Positions 15,081 to 16,286 of a stretch of DNA of 38,384 nt are shown one piece after another. This stretch comes from an uncultured Campylobacterales bacterium. Its GTDB lineage: Bacteria; Campylobacterota; Campylobacteria; Campylobacterales; CAZXTK01. Where the stretch lies: positions 1-38,384 of the forward strand of contig CAZXTK010000001.1 of assembly GCA_964643665.1 (NCBI GenBank), in the 5' to 3' direction. Below the pieces are notes generated by a model. It had not been told where the DNA came from. It did not search any database and worked only from the letters and a program-made list of their open reading frames with translations. A program made the translations under genes and the position numbers. Each line of letters starts with the position of its first letter. The first letter of the stretch is position 1.

Positions 15081-16286
15081 CTAGAAAAAATACCTTACAC
15101 CAAAAGATACCAGGACTGGTGGGCTATTAGTGAAACTAATTTTGGTCACAGGAGAGATTGTTGTTCTCTTATCTAAATATAATTTCAAAGAGCCGTATGC
15201 TTCAAAATCATAATTAATATTATAAGCAAGCTGTGCATCTAATCCATAATGAAACCCACTAGCCGATACTCCCGGAAAATTTCGAGATGAAGTATCCAAT
15301 GCCGTGTGCCATGTTAAAAAAGAAGCCCCCATCAAAGCACCAATATTAGCAGATATTTTTTTGTTTATTGGCTGTCTATAATAAGCGGTTACTGCAAAAT
15401 TATTTAATGTTCCCAAAGAGCCATAGCTCATACTCTCAAAAGATGCAGCTAAGGAATAAGTATCGGTTATAGAATATCCCCCATCAAAACCAAACTTTGC
15501 ACCCCCATTAACAGCTTTAGCTTCATCAGTAAGTTGCACATCAATATTATTAGCATTTGTTGTCATACTAATGCTACTTACTCCATAACCAACATCAAAA
15601 CCAAACCAATAAGTCTTTCGTATTTTTCGTCTATAGTCAGATTTAGCCTTTTCATCTTCGGTTTTATACAATCTAACTACTCTCAAGTCTCCTATTTTAT
15701 TGTAGCTATTGACATCTCTTGGTATTACCCTATACATTCTAGTATCGTCTGCATCTACCATATAAATATTTTCTACATCTAATGCTTTTAAATTATCTCG
15801 TCTAACAAAATATCCAGTTTCTTCTAATTTACACCAACCAAACTTATCACATTTGCGTATTTTTACTAATGTGGAAAATTTCAAAATACCAACTAATTTA
15901 GAAATATTTTCTCGCTCTTGTCTTTCTCTGGCTGTTTCCTTTCTAACTTTAGGGAGATTTTTATGTTTTTCAATAATTTTATTAACAATTTGTTTGCCCT
16001 CATTAGACGGTTGCCCATCACCATCATCATCAGCAAGCTCATAAGTATATACTATCTCATCTGATTTGCTATCAACAATATAAACGCCCTCTTCTTCTAA
16101 TTTTAATAAAAACTTTTCTTTAATGTAAAAATTTGTATAAGATAATTTACACCAGCCTTCTTTATTGCAAAATTCTATTTTAACGGCCTCTCCTGTGTTA
16201 ATTGTGCCAGACACTACATACACTGCACTAAGGCTCATAGAGCCAAATGAAGCTATAAAAAAAGCTAATAAATATCTCGAAATCAT
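15081..16286 (-). CDS. Outer-membrane protein with a signal peptide, two SH3b-like domains and a C-terminal 8-stranded beta-barrel.
   Basis: The N-terminal signal is MISRYLLAFFIASFGSMSLSA. Two copies of C-x-K-x-GWCKL occur (EFCNKEGWCKLSYTNFYIKEKFL and RKCDKFGWCKLEETGYFVRRDNL), typical of bacterial SH3 folds. The last 180 aa or so alternate hydrophobic and polar residues and end in FGVRYFF, the terminal-Phe signature of outer-membrane proteins. A Shine-Dalgarno sequence TAAGGAAAATTTAT precedes the ATG. Confidence 0.75.
   Translation of the reverse strand: MISRYLLAFFIASFGSMSLSAVYVVSGTINTGEAVKIEFCNKEGWCKLSYTNFYIKEKFLLKLEEEGVYIVDSKSDEIVYTYELADDDGDGQPSNEGKQIVNKIIEKHKNLPKVRKETARERQERENISKLVGILKFSTLVKIRKCDKFGWCKLEETGYFVRRDNLKALDVENIYMVDADDTRMYRVIPRDVNSYNKIGDLRVVRLYKTEDEKAKSDYRRKIRKTYWFGFDVGYGVSSISMTTNANNIDVQLTDEAKAVNGGAKFGFDGGYSITDTYSLAASFESMSYGSLGTLNNFAVTAYYRQPINKKISANIGALMGASFLTWHTALDTSSRNFPGVSASGFHYGLDAQLAYNINYDFEAYGSLKLYLDKRTTISPVTKISFTNSPPVLVSFGVRYFF

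Follow-up and report, generated by a model that had tools for sequence, protein, structure and literature searches.

Gram-negative bacteria generally bring giant adhesins to the surface and hold them there through type I secretion and a plug in a TolC-like pore, through autotransporter barrels, or through the T9SS (the type IX secretion system) with PorP-like anchors. In the inverse autotransporters (intimin, invasin; type Ve), one polypeptide combines a LysM head, a 12-stranded barrel and an immunoglobulin (Ig)-repeat surface fiber; in the Hop-type "type 5-like" adhesins of Helicobacter, an adhesin domain is inserted in an interrupted 8-stranded barrel; the gene of a PorP/SprF-like barrel adjoins its cargo gene; and Slam is a larger barrel of the DUF560 kind. 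Here, we analyze a 38,384-nucleotide stretch of DNA from an uncultured Campylobacterales bacterium (contig CAZXTK010000001.1 of assembly GCA_964643665.1; "the window" denotes this whole stretch), in which the gene for a small outer-membrane protein, P0001, directly precedes the gene for a giant, repeat-built lipoprotein. P0001 joins two SH3-like heads to an OmpA-like barrel, and genes of its barrel family recur directly beside lipoprotein genes in two layouts. We propose, with about as much doubt as confidence, that P0001 is a dedicated, wall-tethered membrane dock for the lipidated end of the giant fiber.

With the OmpA family, P0001 shares the barrel fold and the plan of a small barrel that bears a periplasmic domain for wall binding (putative in P0001); it differs in that its head is N-terminal and SH3-like (SPOR in some relatives) rather than OmpA_C and in that its family is tied to lipoprotein genes. 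P0001 and the giant together hold the parts of an inverse autotransporter, that is, a (here putative) wall-binding head, a barrel and an Ig fiber, but the barrel here has 8 strands, and the Ig-repeat fiber is a separate open reading frame (ORF) encoding a lipoprotein with its own Sec/signal peptidase II (SPase II) signal. The Hop adhesins come from the same phylum and are a precedent for an 8-stranded barrel carrying a large surface domain, whereas here the barrel and the fiber are encoded by separate genes and the fiber is lipidated. According to one report (PMC9143113), a dedicated PorP/SprF-like outer-membrane barrel binds and anchors one large surface protein, T9SS cargo with a type B C-terminal domain. 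One of the two cassettes described below (type B: a large protein with a C-terminal domain, a lipoprotein and a barrel) is laid out similarly, but the PorP/SprF system belongs to the Bacteroidota and is T9SS dependent, whereas a lipoprotein is always part of the unit here. A second report (PMC9100927) describes, for Slam/type XI secretion, an outer-membrane-protein gene beside the gene of a dependent surface lipoprotein, an arrangement resembled by our barrel gene adjoining a lipoprotein gene. Neither PorP_SprF nor SlipAM/DUF560 (PF04575) is listed for P0001 at E <= 1 in a Pfam scan. The principle of a dedicated barrel anchoring a giant adhesin is already known elsewhere, and here it would be built from different parts; in full-text-searchable literature, we came across no account of a small barrel that bears an SH3 or SPOR head and is paired with lipoprotein adhesins.

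The features that had been described from the DNA letters alone (hereafter the sequence-only reading), namely a signal peptide, two modules each with a cysteine pair in C-x-K-x-G-W-C-K-L, a charged linker and a barrel ending in FGVRYFF, are all present in the translation of P0001 (Table 1). The signal peptide ends in ...SLSA, followed by VY, and as read from the translation it has neither a cysteine nor a lipobox; the linker between the two modules reads DDDGDGQPSNEGK...RKETARERQEREN. Because the extra domain is N-terminal to the barrel, it is periplasmic by standard outer-membrane-protein topology. The Pfam family OMP_b-brl (PF13505) matches residues 225-370 with 26.9 bits (E 6.4e-6), short of the gathering cut-off of 28.7, which is passed by the relatives P0005 (47.9 bits), P0007 (36.0), P0009 (37.2) and P0008 (42.9). 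An AlphaFold2 (AF2) model built from a 10-row family alignment has eight long strands between residues 226 and 400, with the predicted local distance difference test score (pLDDT), taken over 10-residue blocks, mostly at 85-94 from residue 231. The best Foldseek matches of the model are OmpA transmembrane (TM) domains (9fzc, E 3e-8; 1qjp; 1bxw), with TM-scores on the target of 0.72-0.82 (0.82 for 1qjp), followed by NspA, Ail, OmpX and OmpW, with OpcA also included. With its eight strands and C-terminal aromatic residue, P0001 falls into the class of small barrels represented by OmpA-TM, OmpX and NspA; since OmpA_C (PF00691) has no match in it at E <= 1 and nothing follows the barrel, it is not a member of the OmpA family proper. 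The eight strands and the OmpA-like fold led us to reject a secretion pore or translocon, and the earlier view of P0001 as a small, non-pore barrel is borne out by the model and its structural matches.

An AAGGA-type ribosome-binding site lies 7 nt 5' of the P0001 ATG. At the other end of the gene, the TAG stop codon abuts the ATG of the giant ORF at position 15080 with a gap of 0 nt, and an alternative giant start at Met11 would leave a 30-nt gap behind the barrel gene. A scan for sites at this junction found no terminator-like hairpin between the two genes, and the gene on the other side of P0001 is divergent; for these reasons, the barrel gene and the giant gene are predicted to form a co-transcribed two-gene unit, and their translation is probably coupled. 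Two contigs from a second study (records 15 and 17, from one sample) span positions 13800-16600 unbroken at ~93% identity, with 187 differences and 4 gaps across 2,801 bases; the junction is therefore no artefact of this assembly.

The sequence-only reading had also proposed a survey of co-occurrence in related genomes, and such a survey shows that the pairing recurs. Loci (below, genomes, contigs, loci and proteins carry our own handles G, C, L and P, and genera and families g and f) were classed with a lipobox rule and a hidden Markov model (HMM) of 23 barrel domains, which included the window protein and many of the loci themselves and whose E-values serve for ranking only. Removing two genes at contig ends from the 36 barrel genes found at E <= 1e-25 leaves 34 that can be judged; at 26 of these a lipoprotein gene is directly adjacent, 7 have no partner and 1 is a tandem copy. 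In type A (12 genes; genera g1, g44, g52, g72 and g77; families f1, f19, f6 and f9), the lipoprotein gene lies directly downstream of the barrel gene, as in the window, so that the proposed anchor-plus-fiber design would be split over two genes; in type B (14 genes in 7 genera; families f9 and f15), the order is large ORF, small lipoprotein, barrel, with one locus (L111) assigned to this type by eye because a neighboring FabD-like ORF (sequence reading) carries a false lipobox. Type B follows the barrel tree, requiring 5 changes against a mean of 13.2 for shuffled labels, with none of 500 shuffles as low. Among 12 weaker barrel matches, two are of type B, one has a small downstream lipoprotein ORF and nine have no partner. 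Six of these weaker, generic barrels serve as a control: a maximum-likelihood tree of barrel domains sets them apart as a starred sister clade, and they have no large or type B partner and a single small downstream lipoprotein ORF among them.

The pair is also recognizable from both of its members. Five type A partners (in the window, G345, G300, G202:C64 and G640:C35) share an N-terminal module of ~190 residues counted from the lipobox cysteine (the N-module). In BLASTP comparisons, the N-module of the window's giant matches that of the G640:C35 partner at 34% identity over 155 residues (E 2e-21) and that of the G202:C64 partner with E 4e-11, and the match of the G640:C35 outer-membrane protein to P0001 runs from module 2 through to the C-terminal end (307 residues, E 6e-6). 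Because barrel and N-module both match pairwise, that is, without circularity, these alignments show that two families of the order have kept the two genes together. Junctions are tight at each of the four loci inspected: besides the 0-nt gap in the window, there are 15 nt in G300 and in G202:C64, and the ORFs overlap in G345. The N-module consists of a beta-rich part followed by a helical part and starts many lipoprotein ORFs of 230-5,000 residues across the order. It has no Pfam match, and in a profile search of the PDB nothing scored below E 0.04; one partner shows faint Pfam resemblances (SdrD_B and CarboxypepD_reg, both near E 1e-4) that do not suffice to name its fold.

Type A partners are large, repeat-built lipoproteins, and many of their genes run off contigs, as expected for repeat genes. 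The repeats are Big_12 in the window and G345, aBig_2 in G300, RibLong and He_PIG in G202:C64, cadherin in G640:C35 and Big_2 in the G639, G640, G638 set. The partners in G202:C78 (L035, 10504-11538) and G179 (L033, 8428-9990) are cadherin-like and end in a Fib_succ_major-like region, and the partner in G640:C74 (L090, 2-430) is a lipoprotein with a cadherin-like domain; the class of barrel partners is not limited to giant Ig fibers. The window's giant itself is cut by the contig start (Table 1). Another contig of the window's genome, G000:C31 (L079), carries at 8020-13818, on the minus strand, a Big_12 ORF of 1,933+ residues that runs off the contig end, followed by a partly masked thioredoxin-like gene; this ORF is probably the missing C-terminal part of the giant, which would then exceed about 6,900 residues and may reach about 7,000.

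In the type B loci that were aligned (15 small lipoproteins and 16 large ORFs), the gene order is large ORF, small lipoprotein and barrel. At the C-terminus of the large ORF is a conserved domain of ~125 residues with a tail like ...YIKTTTPLDGSLEIE or ...IRF. The small lipoprotein is ~100 residues long, has two cysteines in most copies and a tail like ...SGSAHIVRK, and matched no Pfam family. The large protein of G333 (~4,265 residues; Big_12, NHL and cadherin), the only one that could be read to its start, has an ordinary signal peptide without a lipobox. Type B loci include L034 (9697-19900) with L080 (G333), L027 and L041 (G371), and L094-L112, and the weaker barrel matches add one further genus. 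The constant neighbor of the barrel is a lipoprotein, either the fiber itself or a small adaptor next to a fiber with the end domain.

The head modules, which the sequence-only reading took to be of the SH3b kind, are SH3-like, with borderline membership of SH3_3. Pfam SH3_3 (PF08239) scores 18.3 bits in P0001 against a cut-off of 27, with module 1 matched over residues 27-52 (E 0.0027); homologous Cys-pair modules score 31.0 (P0017), 29.3 (P0015), 26.5 (P0016) and 23.6 bits (P0003). Both modules are all-beta, and in a second AF2 model, module 2 has pLDDT 85-92 and module 1 has 66-77. VIA-align places spectrin SH3 first for module 2 (Z 5.1, root-mean-square deviation 2.6, 54 residues aligned), followed by the SH3b-type wall-binding domains of Listeria phage endolysins (Z 4.2-4.7), in a list made up mostly of SH3 domains, where Z below 8 may mean only a common arrangement; the Foldseek SH3 match of module 2 has a probability of 1.0 at a non-significant E of 0.29. 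Cys40 and Cys46 are invariant in 10 of 10 rows of one family alignment (A2), and Cys146 and Cys152 in all 14 rows of another (A4). Since the paired cysteines sit on neighboring strands in the AF2 models, a hairpin disulfide is plausible. The window's genome (96.6% complete) encodes a DsbA-like protein, and neither DsbB nor VKOR was found in it, an outcome that neither supports nor excludes disulfides.

SPOR and SH3_3 domains are known wall binders, and both occur as heads in the barrel family, where the head may comprise a single Cys-pair SH3-like module or two of them, a pair of canonical SH3_3 domains (G657, 47.1 bits; G652, 29.3 bits) or SPOR (18.8 bits in P0014, below the 21-bit cut-off; G389 and G102 by sequence reading), or may be missing altogether (G345, G300, G333 and G179). 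The headless barrels of G345 and G300 are still paired with N-module lipoproteins. Because heads are swapped with SPOR and SH3_3 and headless barrels keep the same kind of partner, the comparison favors a head that serves as a peptidoglycan tether rather than as an element recognizing the giant. Of the two ligands that the sequence-only reading had offered for the heads, the wall is thus the more likely and the giant the less likely. The Cys-pair module (C-x5-C, with W before the second Cys) is also found in the barrel-less secreted proteins P0010, P0015 and P0016, as two or three tandem copies or as a single copy after a coiled-coil-like stretch.

P0001 belongs, as judged by searches that did not have the query in the profile (phmmer, and BLASTP to the G640:C35 protein), to an unnamed Campylobacterales barrel family (alignment A5). 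Close homologs are rare: there are two, with 75% and 59% identity, among 5.8 billion clusters. No genomic context for them (P0002 and P0003) was found in two metagenome scans and one genome-contig scan. A single-sequence phmmer search of 1.84 billion representative proteins returned 15 proteins at E <= 0.001, including P0005 (E 5.7e-9, barrel), P0006 (E 3.5e-7, residues 24-364) and P0008 (E 1.2e-5); the whole architecture is common to P0005, P0006, P0007, P0009, P0011, P0012 and P0017. P0006 is the G640:C74 protein, and the gene downstream of it encodes the lipoprotein mentioned above. Database names are of little help: one relative is a "hypothetical protein" of a Campylobacterales bacterium, and the others are hypothetical or clearly misnamed. 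Some database relatives (P0021, P0026 and P0027) have a classical OmpA C-terminal domain, and several have borderline Pfam Opacity matches; the ESM Atlas yields generic OMP_b-brl clusters and, as a lead only, one cluster with SH3_3 in 13% of its members.

In a sample of 401 genomes from across the order, profile A2 matched (E <= 1e-5) in 23, and within family f9 profile A5 matched (E <= 1e-20) in 17 of 184 genomes. The two largest families were blank, with 0 of 38 and 0 of 118 genomes in f26 and 0 of 39 and 0 of 158 in f11, and a scan set up for the whole phylum, in which all the genomes drawn were of the same order, matched 6 of 401 and gave no new carriers. The window's genome has a single copy of the barrel family; the g77 genomes (1.3-1.5 Mb) have 4-6 copies each. 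At one locus (L040, 476-2508, in G202:C29), two SH3-headed family barrels stand in tandem, followed by a cation-efflux-like gene (sequence reading) and with no lipoprotein.

Table 1. Coordinates of the barrel gene, the giant gene and their parts in the window (CDS, coding sequence; SPase I, signal peptidase I)
Feature	Position	Strand	Basis or remark
P0001 CDS, 401-aa outer-membrane protein	15081..16286	minus	ORF list and translation; stop codon counted in
Sec (SPase I type) signal peptide, residues 1-21	16224..16286	minus	translation; model helix 2-14
SH3-like module 1, residues ~24-85, Cys40 and Cys46 in CNKEGWCKL (40-48)	16032..16217	minus	Pfam SH3_3, model
Linker, residues 86-127, acidic then basic	15906..16031	minus	predicted disorder and short helix, pLDDT <50
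SH3-like module 2, residues ~128-190, Cys146 and Cys152 in CDKFGWCKL (146-154)	15717..15905	minus	model, VIA-align
Basic linker between heads and barrel, residues 191-221	15624..15716	minus	translation, model
OmpA-like 8-stranded beta-barrel, residues 222-401, C-terminal aromatic signal	15084..15623	minus	Pfam, model, Foldseek
Giant lipoprotein gene, at least 5,026 aa, off contig start	3..15080	minus	Big_12 repeats make up the C-terminal half
Lipoprotein signal of the giant, lipobox FLGC, Cys34	14979..15080	minus	translation, alignment A3
N-terminal module of the giant, residues 35 to ~220	14421..14978	minus	alignment A3; pairwise BLASTP
Upstream spacer, 99 nt, shared with divergent PAS-domain gene	16287..16385	minus	likely promoter of the two-gene unit

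The divergent neighbor of the barrel gene (16386-17447, plus strand) encodes a 353-residue protein that has, besides a PAS domain (PAS_9, E 1e-7), a tail resembling a coiled coil, and is possibly a local regulator of the barrel-giant unit. The spacer that separates it from the barrel gene has promoter-like sites at no higher frequency than shuffled sequence does. The genes beyond the PAS-domain neighbor are housekeeping genes.

If P0001 is a dock for the giant, the following picture would apply. The barrel would be inserted by the beta-barrel assembly machinery (BAM), with both ends in the periplasm, and the two SH3-like heads would hang there and reach the wall on flexible linkers of ~40 and ~30 residues. 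The giant would receive its lipid at Cys34 and be sorted to the outer membrane, where the barrel would associate with its lipidated N-module while the heads grip peptidoglycan, so that the load on a presumably surface-exposed fiber would pass via barrel and heads to the cell wall rather than resting on the lipid anchor alone. Extended to the family, and more tentatively, the data can be read as a modular fiber-holding system of the Campylobacterales, in which an 8-stranded barrel with an exchangeable wall-binding head would cooperate with a lipoprotein adaptor, either an N-module fused to the fiber (type A) or a separate lipoprotein of ~75 residues when mature that receives the ~125-residue domain of a Sec-exported fiber (type B), together making an outer-membrane device for anchoring or displaying very large surface fibers that does not depend on type I, V, IX or XI secretion; we regard this wider scheme as possible but somewhat doubtful.

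A number of points weigh against the docking role. The N-module is commoner than the barrel (67 versus 23 of 401 genomes), and it always starts lipoprotein-type ORFs. Among 30 N-module loci fetched, a barrel lies upstream only at the four best-scoring ones. The remaining 26 showed none within 1.5 kb; one of these is cut by a contig end, and at 10 of them our own HMM did not recover the module. No barrel was detected in one 99%-complete genome (G344) despite a 1,521-residue N-module lipoprotein (E 3e-50), the gene of which sits behind a TetR-like gene (sequence reading). Conversely, and contrary to an obligate pair, 7 of the 34 judgeable barrels lack a partner gene, one example being a paralogous copy that precedes a phosphoribosyl pyrophosphate (PRPP)-synthetase-like gene (sequence reading) in three g77 genomes; next to the SPOR-type barrel of G102, there is likewise nothing adhesin-like. 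The genomes are not independent, in that four g77 genomes supply 9 of the 12 type A loci. As to P0001 itself, its E-values against A2, A5 and our own HMM are circular because it is inside those alignments, and its barrel is a long branch (2.39) of unsure place in the tree with at most 24% identity to any other member. Within the barrel family, hhalign does not connect Cys-pair heads with canonical SH3_3 heads (probability 1.2%). We know of no way in which an 8-stranded barrel holds a lipoprotein, and none of the readings considered here explains how the giant crosses the outer membrane. The genetic coupling, which the sequence-only reading took as a sign of a functional pair, is recurrent, as the survey shows, but the partnerless barrels and G344 speak against an obligate pair.

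The same neighborhoods could be produced by other roles of the barrel. One, which we consider unlikely, is that it transiently helps its cognate lipoprotein to assemble or to become surface exposed, by getting it into or across the outer membrane, with no permanent anchoring, on the model of Slam/type XI secretion or of BAM-built complexes with a lipoprotein in a barrel. A lipoprotein gene adjoining the barrel in both cassette layouts would fit such a helper, as would the position of the small type B lipoprotein gene between those of cargo and barrel; there is also no DUF560/Slam match in the window's genome, so that another surface route would be needed, but the same search was equally silent in 14 of 14 control genomes, which makes this absence weak evidence. 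Eight strands, on the other hand, offer no channel, with OmpA, OmpX, NspA and Ail as the nearest folds, and a permanent wall tether such as SH3 or SPOR is hard to square with a transient task.

Alternatively, P0001 might be a general envelope stabilizer, an inverted OmpA-type protein co-expressed with surface proteins that stress the envelope but making no specific contact with them. The generic barrel fold, with its borderline OMP_b-brl and Opacity matches, the OmpA C-terminal domains of P0021, P0026 and P0027, the seven family copies that stand alone and the diversity of the partners (Big_12, aBig_2, cadherin-like, Fib_succ-like) all point this way. It would not, however, account for the tight junctions at the four loci inspected, for the fact that at 26 of 26 paired loci the barrel is directly beside the lipoprotein gene and not merely near adhesin genes, for a cassette type that follows the barrel phylogeny, or for a pair kept between two families with both members homologous, and we find it improbable.

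A further alternative, in which the ligand of the SH3-like heads is the giant (say, its N-module during passage through the periplasm) and not peptidoglycan, draws on the conservation of the heads, which are near-identical among the three close homologs (59-75% overall identity) and the most conserved part of the protein, and on the general knowledge that SH3 folds often bind peptides; given the headless G345 and G300 barrels that are paired with N-module lipoproteins, the relatives in which SPOR or canonical SH3_3 domains take the place of the heads and the wall-binding domains that are the best bacterial structural matches of the heads, it is very unlikely. That P0001 is an independent small adhesin/invasin or porin-like protein, akin to Opa, OmpX or Ail, that does no more than share an operon with the giant, as the Foldseek matches to Ail, OmpX, NspA and OpcA, the Opacity matches of several relatives and the barrel external loops that differ between the three close homologs might suggest, is scarcely credible, since it would leave both the periplasmic heads and the recurrent lipoprotein neighbor unexplained.

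We therefore return to P0001 as a wall-tethered dock. The locus combines a fiber of >5,000 residues, equipped with a plain lipoprotein signal, with the gene of an 8-stranded barrel that would, if the proposed role is true, be tethered to the wall. If barrel and giant bind each other, the pair would be a compact way to keep a huge fiber in a fluid membrane while coupling it to the cell wall. The proposal, if true, would also provide a function for an unannotated barrel family and for two unannotated partner modules in vent- and sediment-type Campylobacterales.

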